Positions 6,518-22,390 of a DNA stretch of 24,973 bases are shown here, in pieces. The notes below the pieces were generated by a model. It was given only the letters and a program-made list of their open reading frames with translations, searched no databases and was not told the origin of the DNA. Source of the DNA: a virus. Lineage: Duplodnaviria > Caudoviricetes. Where the stretch lies: the IMG/VR virus record IMGVR_UViG_3300011409_000016, positions 1-24,973 of that record; one strand, given 5' to 3'. How positions within the stretch are numbered: position 1 is the first letter of the stretch; every line of letters starts with the position of its first letter. Made by a program: the position numbers and the translations under genes.

Positions 6518-6546
6518 GAACGTTCTCCTTCAAGAAAATGGATTGA

Positions 6547-6573
6547 GCAGACGGCTCACCATGAACCGCCTGC
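6547..6573 (-). terminator. Hairpin after the capsid gene (partial terminator or mRNA stabiliser)
   Basis: GCAGGCGGUUCA-UGG-UGAGCCGUCUGC, 12 bp with G-U pairs on the mRNA strand; only a weak, offset U tract follows. Confidence 0.55.
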
Positions 6574-6593
6574 CACGGTCCCGTTCATGAACC

Positions 6594-7739
6594 TTATCCC
6601 GCGAGACGCACCCACGCGTTGGCTCGCACGACAGATCCGCCGTACAGACCGTCGTACGCCCACTGCACTTGCCGATGCTGTCTTGAAACTTCCAGCCGAA
6701 GAGACAGGCCGGACACTTCGTCGATTGCCACGGACTGCAGCGTGGCTCCGGGCACCTCCACGGTGTCCATCAGTGGCGCCATCGCGAATGCCAGCGCATC
6801 GCGATGGATCAGCGAGTTCAGACGGTGCGATGCTCTCTTGGTGAGTGCCTCATCATCGACCACGGCCGCAACGAGACCGGGCTCGAATGTGATAGAGGTC
6901 ACCGTGCCCGCACCAACCGAGGAGACCACAGTGTAGGTCTGGGCATGGCCAGCGAACGAAATGATATCACCGAGGATCAGCGTGCCGAGTGCGCCACCAT
7001 CCACGGTCACGGTCTTGATGCCGATGGCATAGCCAGCACCGTTGTTGATCAGGTATCCGGCCGTGGCCGTTCCTGCGGTGTGGAGCGGGACTCGTTGCGA
7101 CATCAGCCACAACGCACCGAGTTTGTTTCCGATCTGGCCGCGAATGATCACGCCGTCGCCGCCACCGAAGGATGCATCCTGGAACGCACGCACACCGAGT
7201 GCCTTCTCTTCTGCATCCGGATCGATGACCATGAAACGGGGTTCCATGTCCATCAACTGCACGTTGCCGACTTTTCTGGCTGCGAGATATTCCGATAGGT
7301 CCGTGGCGAACGGTGTCGTGCCGGCAACGCCCGCGTAGCCGTACGATGACGTGTACTTGGACCAGAGGAAATCCTCGATCGTGTTGGCCAATCCCTTGAT
7401 GGCTTCCGAGGCTTGCATGGGGAGGATGTTGCGATCGACCTGAGCCATGCCCTTGTCGTCCATCGCGAACGGAGCCTCTTTCCATTCCGACAGTGTGACC
7501 GGAACGTTGGTGGGCGTAACAGCGGTCACAGCCGGAGGCACGACATCCGGTGCCACCGTGCGAGTGGCCACGGCTGCAGGCACCGCGACGTTCACGGTAG
7601 CGAACCGTTTCGCCGCCGTGATTTCATTCTCGTAATCACGATTCGCGATGAAGACGAGAGCCAGCCGTTGCCGGAGAGCGGAGAGTCCCATCGCAACCGT
7701 GGTTGCGAGGATGTTGGTTGTAACGAGTGCACCTGCCAT
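6594..7739 (-). CDS. Major capsid protein, P22 coat (gp5)-like
   Basis: Start at ATG 7739 (AAGGAG RBS), 381 aa. ANRDYENE..., GDIISFAG insertion domain, HRDALAFAMAPL and GLSLRL...YDGLYG motifs match P22-coat-like capsids. Confidence 0.92.
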   Translation of the reverse strand: MAGALVTTNILATTVAMGLSALRQRLALVFIANRDYENEITAAKRFATVNVAVPAAVATRTVAPDVVPPAVTAVTPTNVPVTLSEWKEAPFAMDDKGMAQVDRNILPMQASEAIKGLANTIEDFLWSKYTSSYGYAGVAGTTPFATDLSEYLAARKVGNVQLMDMEPRFMVIDPDAEEKALGVRAFQDASFGGGDGVIIRGQIGNKLGALWLMSQRVPLHTAGTATAGYLINNGAGYAIGIKTVTVDGGALGTLILGDIISFAGHAQTYTVVSSVGAGTVTSITFEPGLVAAVVDDEALTKRASHRLNSLIHRDALAFAMAPLMDTVEVPGATLQSVAIDEVSGLSLRLEVSRQHRQVQWAYDGLYGGSVVRANAWVRLAG

Positions 7740-7751
7740 AGTGAAAGTCTC

Positions 7752-7922
7752 CTTGACACAAACGTTTTGAGTATCAAGCGACCCCACCGGAGCCGGGCAT
7801 CGTTCTCACCGAGAGGATGCCGGGATCCGAACTCACCGAGTCCAGATCCCCTAACACGGACACAAGAAAATGTAATGTCCCCACCGGGGACTCGGCACCA
7901 CATTCACCGAATGTGATACCGA
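7752..7922 (-). promoter_or_regulatory. Structured 5' leader of the capsid gene: five CGGUG-capped hairpins plus an RBS-overlapping hairpin
   Basis: CACCG on + at 7785, 7807, 7834, 7882 and 7905, each at a stem apex; non-Watson-Crick positions resolve as G-U on the minus strand. Confidence 0.8.
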
Positions 7923-7935
7923 ACGAACGGGCGTA

Positions 7936-8145
7936 CTACTTCGTGACGACGTGAAGGGAAATGTTTCCCAACTTCGTCACTGGATCGATATGGCCGCTGG
8001 TCGTCACGGTCACTTTTGATCCCGGCTCCAATGCCGACAGCACGTGATCCACCGAGGTGCGCACACCGGGTGGAACGCCGTGATCCAAACCGATTCTCTG
8101 TTTCACCTCGTCGTGCGACCCTGATGCCTCTGCACTCCAACTCAT
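7936..8145 (-). CDS. Small hypothetical protein
   Basis: 69 aa, AAAGGAG RBS, fills the gap between scaffold and capsid leader. Confidence 0.7.
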   Translation of the reverse strand: MSWSAEASGSHDEVKQRIGLDHGVPPGVRTSVDHVLSALEPGSKVTVTTSGHIDPVTKLGNISLHVVTK

Positions 8146-8158
8146 CGGATGCTCCTTT

Positions 8159-8977
8159 CTACGCGCGTTGATCGGCTGAGTACTCGATCTTCATCGTGCC
8201 TTTCCGAATCGCGTCCGCATGTTCTCCCAGTTGTTGCGGAGTGGGATCCTTCAGCAGGATCTGACCGGGTTTCAGACCACCGCCACCACTACCACCTTGA
8301 CGCAGCGGATCCGCTCCTCCTCCGTTCGAGAGCTTGAATGCAAAATCCGATTCCTTCACCTGAGATTTCAACCACTCCTCGACGGTCAGGGGATCCCCAG
8401 GTTTTTCGGAACTGAATCGATTGGCCTGTGCTTTCACCGTACCGCTCTCCACTTGGAAGACCGATGACGCCTTGGTTACGATGAAATCGAGAGCCGACGG
8501 AATCCCTCCGGCCTTGGTGAAGTGTTCGCTGATCGTTTGCCGGAGCGTCGCGTCATCCGCTCGCTTGCGGTCTGCAGCCGATGAGGCTTTCATCGAGGCC
8601 ACTTCATCCAGCAACGGTTGCTGAGCGGCCTTGACGGCAGCCGTGATCTGCGTCGAAATGTCATCCGGCTTCGTGATGCCCTTGGCCTTGAGTGCCGCCA
8701 ATTCGGTAATGGCTGCCTTGGCCGCTTCAGGGTCCTCGATGCCGGCGTACTTCGTCTTGAGTGGCCGCAACTCCTCGACTTCCTTCACGAGCTTGATGTT
8801 GTTGTCTCGAAACTCCACGACCTTGCCATTGGCCGTGGCCAACTCTGCAGCCGGAACGAATCCGGCCGGAGCCGCATCGAGAATGACGTGAAACTTTCCG
8901 TCCTTCGGTTCGTAAAACGTGCGTGCCGATTCGGGCACCTTGTCAAGCGAGTCCACAACGGGTGTCAGTGCTGGCAT
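8159..8977 (-). CDS. Capsid scaffolding protein
   Basis: Start at ATG 8977 (GAAAGG RBS). VDSLDKVPE..RTFYEPKDGKF N-terminus, EFRDNN coiled coil and Gly-rich SNGGGA tail; upstream of the capsid gene. Confidence 0.85.
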   Translation of the reverse strand: MPALTPVVDSLDKVPESARTFYEPKDGKFHVILDAAPAGFVPAAELATANGKVVEFRDNNIKLVKEVEELRPLKTKYAGIEDPEAAKAAITELAALKAKGITKPDDISTQITAAVKAAQQPLLDEVASMKASSAADRKRADDATLRQTISEHFTKAGGIPSALDFIVTKASSVFQVESGTVKAQANRFSSEKPGDPLTVEEWLKSQVKESDFAFKLSNGGGADPLRQGGSGGGGLKPGQILLKDPTPQQLGEHADAIRKGTMKIEYSADQRA

Positions 8978-8999: not shown

Positions 9000-9209
9000 C
9001 TAATTTTTTCCGGGCCCACCAAAATGTTGGATCGCCGACGCGGGAATCGGCTGCACCAACCGTTCTTTGTTTTTGTGATGCGACACGCACGTTTCTTTCG
9101 CGACTTCTAACAGACCGTAGAACAGGATCTTGTTGTCCAACGGTCCTTCGACCTGCACCTGACCAGCCTCGTCCATCGTGATCTTCATCTCTGCAACAAT
9201 CTTCGGCAT
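9000..9209 (-). CDS. Small hypothetical protein
   Basis: 69 aa, AGGAGGAG RBS. Confidence 0.78.
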   Translation of the reverse strand: MPKIVAEMKITMDEAGQVQVEGPLDNKILFYGLLEVAKETCVSHHKNKERLVQPIPASAIQHFGGPGKN

Positions 9210-9431: not shown

Positions 9432-9556
9432 GCGTCCTTCGGCTTGGCAGATTTCAGTTGCCGGAGAGCCCGTTTCCGTGACATGGGCTTGGATAGTTTT
9501 TTCTTCCCGTCCGTATCCATGATCACGTACTTATTTGGTCCGACGCGTTTGATCAT
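9428..9556 (-). CDS. Small basic protein (42 aa), missed by the ORF track
   Basis: MIKRVGPNKYVIMDTDGKKKLSKPMSRKRALRQLKSAKPKDA; ATGA overlaps at both ends (portal stop and next start). Confidence 0.72.
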   Translation of the reverse strand: MIKRVGPNKYVIMDTDGKKKLSKPMSRKRALRQLKSAKPKDA

Positions 9557-11025
9557 ACTTCCGGTTCCGACGGTGGTGGTTCTTGGTATCCGGGTTTCCG
9601 TGGTGGAAACGATTGCGGTGGTGGCTTCGGCTTATTTTTCTCCCGTTCTTTTCTCCGTTTCTCGATAGCTTCGACTTCAGCATCCGCATCGATGCCTTCG
9701 CGACCCCATCCACCGGTAACCAGAATGTTCCACCATGTCTCGTAGCTGATCTCTTCGGCTTGGAGAGCGGCCAATGCGGCCTGGATGTCTTGCGGTGAGG
9801 CTTTGACATTCAAATAATCTTTGTTGAGTTCCACGCCCACTTCGGTGTCCTGTGGGAGAGCTTCGTTACCCATCCACCACGCAACAATCCGAAGCACCAA
9901 CGTAAATCCCAATTCAACAGACTGCGCCACGGTTCGGAGCGACGCATGTTCACCCGCATGGCGCATGGTGACCGCTGACGCCGTTTCTGGTACGATCGCC
10001 GAGTCCTCCAGGAGCCGTGCACCAAGCGTGGCCATTTGTTTCTTCTTTTCGTTCATGGCCGTGACGAGTGCACCGAGTCCTTCACCGCTGAACTCCAGCA
10101 TGCCGGCGGATCCCTGGATATCCAGTTCCCAAACTTTGCTCGGACCGATCGGCAAAGGAGAAGAATCCGCACCGGAGGCACGAGCACCGGCGACCCATGG
10201 CGTTGGTAGCGCCACGAGATGGAGTCCGTATTCGTAATCGACGCTGTTGCGCCAGTGACCGAGGTTGACATCCGCGAGATCGATAAGTGGCGGCTCCTCT
10301 AGTACCGATGTCGCATTCGATGCGCAGATGAATACGAAAGGAATGAACGGAAGTGCTTCACCTCTCCGGTTAAGCGTGACCGGTGTTCCGTGATGAACGA
10401 ATACATTCTTTTCCTTCTCCGATTTTGGACGCCACAACTGCACGATGCATTTGCCGTCCACCAACCGAAGTTCACGGTACTGTTCGATGACCTCGCTGAT
10501 AAACGGATCCGTCGGAACCGTCTGCTCGATCGATTCCCTCAGCACCAACATCGTCAACACTTCGGCTCCCTGGAGTCTCGAGGTTTTCCAGTTGACGATA
10601 TCTTCCGCAAGGTAGCCGATACAGTACGGCCGATTATCAATCGAAGGAACCGAGGACATGTCCACGAGTACACCGAACCGGCCGATGAGCATCACTTCGT
10701 TGCCGGTAGTCTGGGCAAACATCTCGAATGGCACATTGCCCAGTGTGATATCATCGAGATACGGTTTCATGTCTTCCGGGAATTCTACCTCCGGTGCTTC
10801 CTGGAAGATGGATCCCATCATTCCTTCGACGGTGCGCTTGGTGGCGTTATAGAAGCTCCCACGGCGACGGTAATCTTCGTTCTCTACGAGATCCTTGGCC
10901 GGAAGGAGCGGCACGTACTTCACGCCAGCCTTCAGGATGGCATCCCGTCCACCGATGCAGTCACGAAGTCGTGCCCACTTCACCTTCATGTCTGCAAAAT
11001 CTTTACGTTCAGTGTTCACGGGCAT
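9553..11025 (-). CDS. Portal protein (DUF4055-type)
   Basis: 490 aa; Y..RGSFYNATKRT, EDIVNW, IPFVFI, PPLIDLADVNLGHWRNSVDYE and LGARLL motifs; position before scaffold and capsid. Confidence 0.92.
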   Translation of the reverse strand: MPVNTERKDFADMKVKWARLRDCIGGRDAILKAGVKYVPLLPAKDLVENEDYRRRGSFYNATKRTVEGMMGSIFQEAPEVEFPEDMKPYLDDITLGNVPFEMFAQTTGNEVMLIGRFGVLVDMSSVPSIDNRPYCIGYLAEDIVNWKTSRLQGAEVLTMLVLRESIEQTVPTDPFISEVIEQYRELRLVDGKCIVQLWRPKSEKEKNVFVHHGTPVTLNRRGEALPFIPFVFICASNATSVLEEPPLIDLADVNLGHWRNSVDYEYGLHLVALPTPWVAGARASGADSSPLPIGPSKVWELDIQGSAGMLEFSGEGLGALVTAMNEKKKQMATLGARLLEDSAIVPETASAVTMRHAGEHASLRTVAQSVELGFTLVLRIVAWWMGNEALPQDTEVGVELNKDYLNVKASPQDIQAALAALQAEEISYETWWNILVTGGWGREGIDADAEVEAIEKRRKEREKNKPKPPPQSFPPRKPGYQEPPPSEPEV

Positions 11026-15206: not shown

Positions 15207-15376
15207 TATTCATTCCGTTCTTGAAACTGTTTCCATTCATCTACCAGTGCGCGAATCTCTTCGACGAGTGCCCGGTACTCCGGTGTTTCCCGTTTCCGTC
15301 CCGTGGTATGCGGCAGGAGTGACAGTTTCACGTACGCTCGTTGGATCTTTCTGAGGAGCTCATCCCCATGATGCAT
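15206..15376 (-). CDS. Small hypothetical protein
   Basis: Helical ORF (MHHGDELLRKIQRAY...) bridging terL and the HTH gene with TAATG coupling; start uncertain. Confidence 0.6.
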   Translation of the reverse strand: MHHGDELLRKIQRAYVKLSLLPHTTGRKRETPEYRALVEEIRALVDEWKQFQERNE

Positions 15377-16823
15377 CCCGCACCCGTACTTCAGACACGC
15401 CACCGAGATATTCCAGGGATGCGAGCATCAACGCATCAGCATCATCGGGCGATGGCTTGTTCCGTCGCTTGATGTCATCCTTGGATTCCATTTGAATCTG
15501 ACCGCGAGAGTTCCGCTTGTATCGCAGGTCCACGAGTTGCGCGGCCAAGTCGTCATCGTGCTCATCGATGTCGATGTTGCCGGATTGAAACGTTTCGCGG
15601 AGTGCCCAGTACCCTTCGGCTCGGACATTCGCAAAATGTTCCTTATCCTTGGCCGGTCTCGAGACATTGACGCCCACGACCACCTTGACCCGCTGTTCCT
15701 GTGCGCGATTCACGACGCCACGACCGATACCAATCTCATCCACCTTCGCTTTCGTAATCGGTGCCTCGGGTGTGAGCGTTTTTCTGGTATGGATAAACGC
15801 GAGGAGCGTCCCGCACGTTTCCATGGTATCCGGATTCTGATCCCGCTGAATAATCCGGTAGCGTGGGCCTTCGCGTTCGCAGTAGGTGCTATTGTTCGAA
15901 CCGCCGCCGACATCCAATCCGAATTCATGCGGCAGTCCTGGTGGAAGCTCTCGGAGTTGCGCGTTGCGAATCCATTTGATGGGAATCAATCCGCCCACGG
16001 TCGTATCTGGGAACTGACCGAGCACTTTGCTAATCCAGAACGGATTCGCTTCTCCCCATTTCCGTCGCTTCTCCTCCACCCACATCTTTCCGACCAGGAG
16101 CGGCCGGAGTTTTTCCGGAACGGGTTCCTTCGTGAAGTTCGGCGTGTCAAAGGCAGAGATGGGGATGACATTCCATCCGGAGCCCGGATCGCAGATGCGG
16201 CGGAACTCCGTTTCTGGGTCATCAGGATTCCCGATGGCCAGGAAGCGAGAATCATCATTCGCAATAAGGGAGTCAGCCGCTTCCCAGAGTGGCGTGGCGT
16301 TGATGCCTCCGGCCTCATCAAAGATCACCAGCACGTAGCGCGCGTGGATGCCCTGAAAGGCAGCCGGATCCAAATCATCCGGTTTCATCCCGAACGCAAC
16401 GAGTTCTTCCTTACCGTTCGCCATCTGCATGAACCATTCCGTTTGATTCGTGCGGCCCATGAGAGAGGCTTTCCCGTGCGCGCGATTGATCTCTCTCCAG
16501 AGAATGTTACGGACCTGTCTGCCGGTTGGTGCTGAGGTCACGACAAAGGCTTCACCCACCGGATGATTGCAGAGCCAATGGGATCCTATACGAGCGGCCA
16601 GGAAACTCTTACCGGAGCCGTGGCAACTCGGAACGGCCGTTTTCCGATTATCCCGCACGGACTCCATGATCTCGACCTGTTTCGACCAGAGATGCTCTTT
16701 CAGCACGTTGCGGATCCAACCGGGCCCATCCCGCAGATAGGTCCGGCGTGCAAGTTCGGCTTGTATGGCCGCAAGCTCTCGAACCGGATCACGATGCTGC
16801 GAGAGGAGCGCAGATGCGGGCAT
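15360..16823 (-). CDS. terL: Terminase large subunit
   Basis: Walker A SCHGSGKS, Walker B VLVIFDEA, coupling motif IGNP, nuclease GLDVG and SPDDADAL. Confidence 0.96.
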   Translation of the reverse strand: MPASALLSQHRDPVRELAAIQAELARRTYLRDGPGWIRNVLKEHLWSKQVEIMESVRDNRKTAVPSCHGSGKSFLAARIGSHWLCNHPVGEAFVVTSAPTGRQVRNILWREINRAHGKASLMGRTNQTEWFMQMANGKEELVAFGMKPDDLDPAAFQGIHARYVLVIFDEAGGINATPLWEAADSLIANDDSRFLAIGNPDDPETEFRRICDPGSGWNVIPISAFDTPNFTKEPVPEKLRPLLVGKMWVEEKRRKWGEANPFWISKVLGQFPDTTVGGLIPIKWIRNAQLRELPPGLPHEFGLDVGGGSNNSTYCEREGPRYRIIQRDQNPDTMETCGTLLAFIHTRKTLTPEAPITKAKVDEIGIGRGVVNRAQEQRVKVVVGVNVSRPAKDKEHFANVRAEGYWALRETFQSGNIDIDEHDDDLAAQLVDLRYKRNSRGQIQMESKDDIKRRNKPSPDDADALMLASLEYLGGVSEVRVRDASWG

Positions 16824-16826
16824 GGG

Positions 16827-17078
16827 CTATCGACGATCTCGATACAGGCCAGAGGAGCGTCGTCCCGCATTGTTGTTGTGTGCGGTGGCGGCGTGCCGTT
16901 GATTCGCGTGATGGGCTGCCTGTCGAACCCGTGCCTGCGAAACGGCATGTCTGGCGTACATCGCGATCCGGGGATTGGCCGGAGAGGGAGAAGATTTTGC
17001 CAAGCGAGCCGTGGCCGTGGAGAGTCGTCCGGCGGCACCGCCACCGGTATACTGATTGATGCCTGAGGGATTCGGCAT
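16827..17078 (-). CDS. Small basic Ala/Arg/His-rich protein
   Basis: Start at ATG 17078 (AAGGA RBS): MPNPSGINQYTGGG...; 83 aa. Confidence 0.7.
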   Translation of the reverse strand: MPNPSGINQYTGGGAAGRLSTATARLAKSSPSPANPRIAMYARHAVSQARVRQAAHHANQRHAATAHNNNAGRRSSGLYRDRR

Positions 17079-22078: not shown

Positions 22079-22390
22079 ATGCCACTCTTTGACTATCGAT
22101 GTCCTGCATGCGGGTGGGAAGAGGAAGTCCTCGTACAGAGAACGGAGGATCAGGTGATCTGTCGAGGCCGATGCAATCGCCTGAGTGTCCGTTACATTGG
22201 ACCAGAGGAACGGCCACCGATGAAACTCGATCTGCAGATGATGGACCGGCTCTTTCCGAATCGCTCTGGTAAGCCGATCATCAACGGCTTCAATGAGGAG
22301 AACGGCTACTCCACGCCGGACGAGCGGTTCAAACCCTCTGGCATTCCCGGCATCAAAGTGCAAACGAGAAAGGGACGCGGATGGGGATAA
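22079..22390 (+). CDS. FmdB-like zinc-ribbon protein
   Basis: MPLFDYRCPACG...VICRGRC. Confidence 0.8.
   Translation: MPLFDYRCPACGWEEEVLVQRTEDQVICRGRCNRLSVRYIGPEERPPMKLDLQMMDRLFPNRSGKPIINGFNEENGYSTPDERFKPSGIPGIKVQTRKGRGWG

Follow-up and report, generated by a model that had tools for sequence, protein, structure and literature searches.

Hairpins with a shared C-GGN-G loop before the major capsid gene of tailed phages: a conserved leader RNA, a predicted translational switch and the scaffold protein as its likely reader

Background

Capsid protein made without enough scaffold is described as ending in aberrant shells (PMC3185693, available part). Here we consider a stretch of 24,973 nt that is part of an uncultured tailed phage (the window), where the start of the major capsid gene is preceded by a 196-nt gap holding an array of hairpins with one loop and unrelated stems. 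The locus raises the question of whether these hairpins represent a conserved element, whether they could act on the capsid start and, if so, which protein might read them.

On the minus strand, the window encodes the terminase (15360-16823), the portal (9553-11025; phrog_145, DUF4055), a 272-aa head scaffolding protein (8159-8977; phrog_206), a 69-aa ORF of no known family that lies between scaffold and leader as a lineage-specific insert (7936-8145) and the major capsid protein (6594-7739; 381 aa, phrog_283, Pfam P22_CoatProtein), i.e., the gene presumed to be controlled. Prophage-like relatives occur in assemblies titled Candidatus Marinacidobacterales and Planctomycetota.

Results

The hairpin array of the window

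Sequence reading combined with a stem search placed five hairpins with C-GGU-G triloops on the minus (mRNA) strand, just as the initial annotation had written them: H1 (7892-7922; 14 bp), H2 (7877-7891; 6 bp, with a weak U-rich run downstream), H3 (7822-7850; 13 bp), H4 (7796-7821) and H5 (7779-7795). Also borne out were a small internal loop in H4 (1x2), six non-Watson-Crick stem pairs that, read by hand, are all G-U on the mRNA strand (two each in H1, H3 and H5), and a sixth hairpin, H6 (7752-7778), which overlaps the start of the Shine-Dalgarno sequence (SD) AAGGAG of the capsid gene (7749-7754), its last three bases being the AAG of this motif. Folding of the leader (7736-7940), one of the checks proposed with that annotation, gave a strong structure on the mRNA strand (-89.3 kcal/mol; z = -4.72; matched by 0 of 200 shuffles) as compared to the opposite strand (-64.3 kcal/mol; z = -2.30), and this strand bias, together with that of the stem counts and G-U pairs among relatives given below, rules out a DNA cruciform or chance palindromes as the origin of the hairpins. 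CGGTG words occur 133 times on the two strands of the window; 13 of them cap a stem of at least 4 contiguous pairs, and five of these 13 fall inside one stretch of 171 nt.

Another proposed check, a search with the covariance models of Rfam 15, returned 0 matches in the window and 0 at E values up to 10 on 7700-7960; among related loci, one tRNA was the sole match in a set of 20 and nothing was matched in 20 more, with no GP20-a or GP20-b. No promoter was found within the leader of the window. Two other hairpins were observed on the minus strand, i.e., a lone 8-pair C-GGU-G hairpin in the region 17033-17047 (apex 17040), inside an ORF upstream of the terminase gene and approx. 217 nt before the terminase start, and an AUGGU-looped hairpin of 12-13 pairs (6544-6575) that lies between the capsid stop and the following gene and has a weak U-run after it.

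Conservation of the loop code among relatives

The 183 loci with a capsid N-terminus were reduced to 77 representatives at <90% capsid identity, and the leaders of the 60 of these with at least 45% identity were compared. At least one C.G.G-capped stem was present in 57 of the 60 leaders and at least two in 55; C.G.G triloop stems with at least 4 pairs numbered 197 in these leaders, whereas the reverse strand had 9 and an equal length of coding sequence 12. Among 170 C-xxx-G apices with three further Watson-Crick pairs (apices were picked by Watson-Crick pairs only), 153 were GGN or AGN (142 and 11, respectively). The apex had initially been called invariant, which is true of the five loops of the window, but across the family the third base varies (GGU 87, GGG 22, GGA 17 and GGC 16 of the 170), and an invariant GGU loop was rejected. 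This base agrees within a genome in 102 of 169 pairs of hairpins versus 67.6 expected by chance, and it is uniform in 13 of the 30 genomes having three or more hairpins. A few lineages show other tips (C-GUU-G in L096; C-CGA-G in L006 and L025).

The stems showed the compensatory changes that had been proposed as a test, as two-sided compensation was found for 18 of 26 core pairs in an alignment of 22 H3-H5 cores, H3 included. At outer stem positions, G-U outnumbered A-C on the mRNA strand (90 versus 45). H1 and H2 are absent from short leaders (e.g., L066, L071, L151). Based on the loop counts, the core alignment and the short leaders, the loop code of the family is C-GGN-G, sometimes C-AGN-G, and the abutting H3-H4-H5 form the core, to which H1-H2 are an optional upstream module. 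Overall, these sequence comparisons identify the leader as a real and widely conserved cis RNA that, having no Rfam match, is uncatalogued.

Intergenic clusters of such hairpins with a stem of at least 7 pairs were located at the capsid leader alone in the window and in 11 of the 13 genomes fetched (G007 and G010 had no such cluster at the capsid leader), which rules out a signal shared with tail-tube or other late leaders. The same distribution, at the capsid leader and not at the operon start, speaks against loops that serve as targets of a phage antisense RNA or as nut-like antitermination sites. Lambdoid nut sites combine a GNRA-like boxB pentaloop with boxA near the operon start and are read by an N-type protein, as opposed to the triloops clustered at the capsid leader here. 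The weak U-run after H2 and scattered complements of H5 (12-15 nt, counted with no chance model) in related genomes would fit such targets; however, the H5 complements were not judged conserved, and with unrelated stems and a third loop base that varies within genomes there is little to pair with, so that we regard this explanation as very improbable.

Some observations concern the surroundings of the arrays. Internal direct duplications multiply the C-GGU-G hairpins in the capsid leader of L119, which is a possible route of array growth. In L078, L153 and L005, unrelated short ORFs separate the scaffold stop from the hairpin array, as does the 69-aa ORF in the window; this spot tolerates inserted ORFs while the leader stays with the capsid gene. 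Five genomes of the same capsid family (G004, G005, G006, G007 and G009) have no match to the terminase of the window, suggesting that packaging genes were exchanged while the leader stayed.

A predicted two-state switch at the capsid start

Although the five hairpins are real, the fold initially drawn from them is incomplete, as H5 is not part of the predicted ground state once approx. 20 nt of coding sequence are added. Instead, the loop and 3' arm of H5 (7788-7780) are predicted to pair with the spacer between SD and AUG (7740-7749), and pairing of 7799-7792 with the first capsid codons (Ala-Gly-Ala; 7728-7737), which is suggested by folding and by wobble covariation, would extend this OFF helix beyond the start codon and invade the 3' base strand of H4. 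H6 is retained in both predicted states, where it places H5 beside the ribosome site and covers the first SD bases. In the window, folding predicts OFF as the ground state: forming H5, the predicted ON hairpin, costs 3.6 kcal/mol, and the predicted cost of opening the region from SD to AUG drops from 9.0 to 5.5 kcal/mol when H5 is held.

This arrangement was compared among 57 of the 60 related leaders, three having been left out as they contain no C-[GAT]-G-N-G hairpin or no SD (L096, L133, L210) and two having been kept despite a mis-picked H5 (L074, L131). Complementarity between H5 and the spacer is evident in the comparison, with pairing of the H5 arm to its own spacer exceeding that to shuffled spacers in 54 of 57 leaders and the mean for spacers of other genomes in 49 of 57, these related genomes not being independent. 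When folded with 20 nt of coding sequence, the predicted OFF helix outweighed H5 in 52 of 57 leaders. Holding H5 reduced the predicted cost of SD-AUG opening by at least 1 kcal/mol in 52 of 57 (median drop, 4.1 kcal/mol), as compared to 11 of 57 (median, 0.05 kcal/mol) when the previous hairpin was held instead. Moreover, a base immediately 5' of H5 varies together with the silent third position of capsid codon 2 (A with GCU in 11 of 12 cases, G with GCU in 0 of 32; GCU background at this codon, 17-18%), a covariation that rests on three independent changes (P = 0.25; sign test). A crude test of the third loop base against the spacer base was not significant (P = 0.25).

The switch was also assessed in more distant loci; 7 loci of the window's clade were excluded, and 6 loci showed no hairpin inside 120 nt. 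For phages of a separate set, whose capsids are unrelated, a mirror form was predicted, in which the 5' arm and loop of the hairpin pair with the SD (18 of 22; P = 0.004, swap test), and in distant phages with related capsids the predicted switch was weak (12 of 21; P = 0.20, swap test). Among 8 cultured phages, it was predicted clearly in Xp15 only (the start used was 2 nt off, and the right start, in L414, gives the same result) and weakly in Cp1R7A-A1; SSP002, MAR10, Effie, RcXuper, DSS3P8 and Lacusarx have the hairpins with a gain of 0.7 kcal/mol or less. Overall, folding and covariation predict an inhibitory structure over the capsid start that is relieved from the adjacent hairpin, and for the window's own clade we hold this translational switch, as a prediction, to be well supported. 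As holding H5 is predicted to ease access to the start, a factor that holds the H5 loop shut would in this clade activate, rather than repress, capsid translation.

A switch or leader of this kind might require no ligand at all, if the structure protected or processed the capsid message or if the OFF helix gave way to temperature, to the kinetics of folding or to ribosomes coming off the gene upstream. Strong 5' hairpins stabilize bacterial mRNAs, the H5 loop also takes part in the OFF helix, a role that could keep its sequence constant with no ligand involved, and several cultured members show no energetic switch. A short 5'-UTR RNA before a head gene is also described for phage YuA (10.1101/2023.10.13.562163, available part). 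However, H1-H4 lie outside the OFF helix and yet keep the loop, as seen in the predominance of GGN and AGN apices. To our knowledge, C-GGN-G is not among the usual extra-stable loops. Since there is also no structural reason for the association with scaffold type presented below, we consider an element without ligand improbable.

Association of the hairpins with scaffold type

In a set of 20 phage records, C-GGN-G stems upstream of the capsid gene accompany scaffolds with the N-terminal domain found in the window. SSP002, MAR10, Effie, Xp15, RcXuper, DSS3P8 and Cp1R7A-A1 carry both this domain and the hairpins, even with an unrelated capsid; conversely, qsb1, Pan1, R5C and 683R6 have a related capsid with a different scaffold, and the hairpins are missing (DMCA, of the same kind, has one doubtful 4-pair stem). 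Two other records, phiCbK and Colossus, were ambiguous. Two exceptions, Siara and ctIqW946, in which the scaffold domain is present and gap hairpins are absent, drew attention to the motif after the domain, where scaffolds carry either EFRDNN or GLKSAL..ER. In the window, EFRDNN represents residues 55-60 of the scaffold (codons at 8798-8815); R57 and N60 are invariant in 51 homologues.

Loci fetched via alignments of each scaffold type comprised 174 scaffold loci, 15 of them without a called capsid start, and the remaining ones were reduced to 106 at 80% scaffold identity (56 EFRDNN and 50 GLKSAL loci). A hairpin before the capsid gene was found in 50 of 56 EFRDNN loci (26 of 29 with related and 24 of 27 with unrelated capsids; six loci scored without hairpin), as compared to 0 of 50 GLKSAL loci (0 of 29 with related and 0 of 21 with unrelated capsids; 0 of 20 with gaps >40 nt). 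Seven changes of scaffold type fall on the capsid tree (3 of 58 rows omitted); among the 5 supported independent pairs, the hairpin changes along with the type in 4.7 and in none the opposite way. The tree-aware test gave P = 0.0625 in the first capsid family, which is the floor for five pairs, and P = 1 in the second, with 2 pairs. Overall, the motif follows scaffold type and not the capsid across these two unrelated capsid families, which makes EFRDNN a marker of the hairpin-carrying scaffolds.

Other loops were observed next to other scaffolds. DMCA (L221 2143-2263), 683R6 (L225 2085-2140) and P106B (L228 1990-2030) show C-GGAU-G tetraloops before the capsid gene, and their scaffolds differ at the N-terminus (a lysine-rich start, then a PVYV motif), which hints that the loop code changes with scaffold type more widely. 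Some GLKSAL loci (L441, L443, L519, L012, L014, L031) contain C-GGGAU-G pentaloops, possibly a second code or a site for a host CsrA-type protein. The annotated capsid starts of phiCbK (L268:3448) and 683R6 (L225:2090) seem too far upstream, and leader hairpins of these two phages sit before the next ATG that has an SD. In SSP002 (L219:2259-2464), L278, L226 and L227, the scaffold stop has a terminator-like hairpin after it; in SSP002 and MAR10 a sigma-70-like promoter, recognized by eye, comes after the terminator and is followed by two C-GGG-G hairpins, suggesting that the motif belongs to the capsid message.

Hairpins at the scaffold's own ribosome site

The ribosome site of the scaffold gene itself carries the same hairpin in 14 of 56 EFRDNN loci, as compared to 1 of 50 GLKSAL loci. 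Where the scaffold gene has a GGAG SD, a hairpin encloses this site in 12 of 32 cases versus 1 of 52 other genes from the same loci. In these distant members the SD often represents the loop, as in Effie, and hairpins flank the scaffold gene on both sides; within the window's own clade, a hairpin occurred at the scaffold leader in 0 of 37 loci. Binding at this site in the distant members would repress scaffold synthesis.

These hairpins over the SD, together with a layout of several same-loop hairpins before a ribosome site as in CsrA targets, would suit a platform on which a loop-bound protein blocks capsid translation, in the manner of CsrA or of P22 autorepression. At the capsid gene, however, a triloop hairpin covers the SD in 0 of 56 EFRDNN loci, and a stabilized H5 is predicted to open the start, so that repression of the capsid gene appears quite unlikely. 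The initial annotation had proposed a protein-binding platform controlling capsid translation; a conserved element with a fixed loop and free stems is indeed most simply read as a repeated candidate binding site, but the effect now predicted is activation.

Candidate readers of the loops

Three ligands had been named initially, i.e., the scaffold, the capsid protein and the 69-aa protein, and of these the scaffold fits best. The capsid protein is not supported, since phages having related capsids with the other scaffold type have no hairpin (0 of 29). The 69-aa ORF (7936-8145) was rejected, as it is present in 9 near-identical loci only and in 0 of the 59 representatives with <90% capsid identity; it had no family or Atlas match.

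A structural model of the scaffold (mean pLDDT, 86.8) shows a small N-terminal beta domain (residues 1-31) and then a long helix (43-76) that holds EFRDNN. A fold search of the model against the PDB gave nothing at E = 0.001, and the N-terminal region matched no known RNA-binding family; an Atlas search with residues 1-60 yielded unnamed clusters, one of them with PF06810 in 32%. Comparison of the third loop base with the scaffold residues around EFRDNN, by eye, revealed no pattern.

The main alternative is that the switch is real and its activator another factor (a small phage protein, the portal, the capsid or a host RNA-binding protein), with leader and scaffold gene inherited as one recombination module. 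The leader adjoins the scaffold gene, and co-inheritance alone could yield the association. Two further ORFs might supply such a factor. One encodes 69 aa of no family on the minus strand just before the scaffold gene (9000-9209) and is found in 9 of 13 close genomes; the other, on the plus strand and thus opposed to the late genes (22079-22390), has a weak Zn_ribbon_8 match (E = 1.7e-6) and is common to 6 to 7 of 13 relatives (a profile search gave 6 of 13). All 14 genomes have six head and neck genes in common, and weak homologues may be missed. On the other hand, of 44 distant EFRDNN loci 1 has the ORF at 9000-9209 close to the scaffold, portals of this family accompany either scaffold type (27 of 44 and 22 of 44), and the same loop precedes unrelated capsid families. 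No phage CsrA was found in any of 5 near-complete genomes, in a search whose control worked (matches in 3 of 14). A search for the Com zinc finger (PF10122) had no match in 5 near-complete relatives, the control likewise being silent throughout. Hairpins on both sides of the scaffold gene in distant members, and a terminator-like hairpin that parts the scaffold gene from the motif in SSP002, Effie and Xp15, also argue against simple linkage. We thus regard another activator as rather unlikely, and the scaffold as the likely reader of the hairpins, as judged from these sequence patterns.

Discussion

Among known systems, the predicted switch resembles that of phage Mu, where Com is described as binding a short C-G-closed hairpin beside an inhibitory structure that holds the start codon, thereby turning mom translation on, and as reading a six-residue loop (PMC6483171, available part). 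In both cases a protein at a C-G-closed hairpin adjoining an inhibitory structure turns translation on, here as a prediction. The systems differ in that Com, as far as this source describes it, is a dedicated zinc finger with a six-base loop and one site, whereas the leader studied here presents up to five triloop hairpins (GGN or AGN), the last of which would form in place of the inhibitory helix; a capsid gene is the target, and the reader would be an assembly scaffold.

In P22, free scaffold represses its own synthesis, a translational autoregulation reportedly described by Wyckoff and Casjens in 1985 (cited in PMC2115188). A hairpin that sits on the ribosome site of the scaffold gene, as observed in distant members, is in keeping with this logic. 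However, P22 scaffold controls its own gene, while the target proposed here is the capsid gene, and the phrog_206 scaffold is likened to P22 gp8 by logic alone and not by homology. The P22 scaffold is described as acting on mRNA through its N-terminal region (10.1101/2022.12.13.520362, available part). Activation of a coat gene by a scaffold was not found in the literature searched. Overall, the element would resemble Mu Com/mom in its working and P22 scaffold autoregulation in its logic, belonging to neither.

Targets of CsrA/RsmA are several hairpins with unrelated stems and one GGA loop word before a ribosome site. The present leaders share this arrangement of multiple same-loop hairpins, but theirs are GGN triloops closed by a C-G pair, GGA occurs in a minority of the apices and GGU in all loops of the window, and the predicted outcome is activation. 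The initial annotation drew an analogy to CsrA and P22 with a different loop code; those systems repress, as opposed to the two-state activation predicted here.

Cis RNAs at head genes have been predicted before. A link of the name GP20 to scaffolds comes from 7 of 120 listed homologues that carry PF06810, which we take to be the family formerly named Phage_GP20. Fremin and Kyrpides (2023) reported candidate viral RNAs, including predicted cis RNAs at head genes (PMC10690425, available part), and GP20-a (RF02991) and GP20-b (RF03003) are predicted cis RNAs upstream of the scaffold gene. These resemble the present element as cis RNAs at head genes, GP20 being a scaffold family, and differ in their position upstream of the scaffold gene and in that the leader of the window has no Rfam match; the main text of PMC5737381, as available, mentions neither GP20 nor a capsid. 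One candidate from the same study, DNAVirus_7287, is listed before a P22-type coat gene, and is gut-derived and terminator-like (PMC10690425). The alignments of that study may hold the present motif. A full-text search found no description of the motif or of a capsid-activating scaffold, among hits judged mostly from titles and the starts of abstracts and with most subscription papers, the original P22 work included, outside its scope.

Conclusions

We lean, with somewhat better than even confidence, towards a mechanism in which the last C-GGN-G hairpin is in competition with a helix in which the capsid start is buried, and the scaffold, binding the loops, switches capsid translation on. The protein bound to the C-GGN-G loops would be unassembled scaffold, making contact through its N-terminal domain and the EFRDNN helix. 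H1-H4 may gather scaffold, adding avidity or cooperativity, and binding at H5 would prevent formation of the OFF helix and leave the capsid start open. Capsid protein would then be made only when free scaffold is at hand to chaperone it, and scaffold bound in this way at its own ribosome site would, in many distant members, stop scaffold synthesis. More tentatively, and with a little less than even confidence, we propose that throughout a large group of tailed phages the scaffold is a sequence-specific reader of C-GGN-G triloops, turning the capsid on and, in many members, its own translation off; such feedback, sensing assembly, would set the ratio of scaffold to capsid through an RNA-binding element (N-terminal domain plus EFRDNN helix) that has not been described.

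The element is testable, with a two-state leader, a named candidate reader bearing a six-residue marker and cultured carriers (Xp15, Effie, SSP002, RcXuper and DSS3P8), and sister scaffolds without a leader hairpin provide a natural negative control. How phages keep scaffold and capsid in balance when the two genes are adjacent is understood in few cases. Should the scaffold prove to be the reader, these phages would possess an assembly chaperone that activates translation of its own client, along with a small RNA-binding module of a new kind and a compact translation switch activated by a protein.
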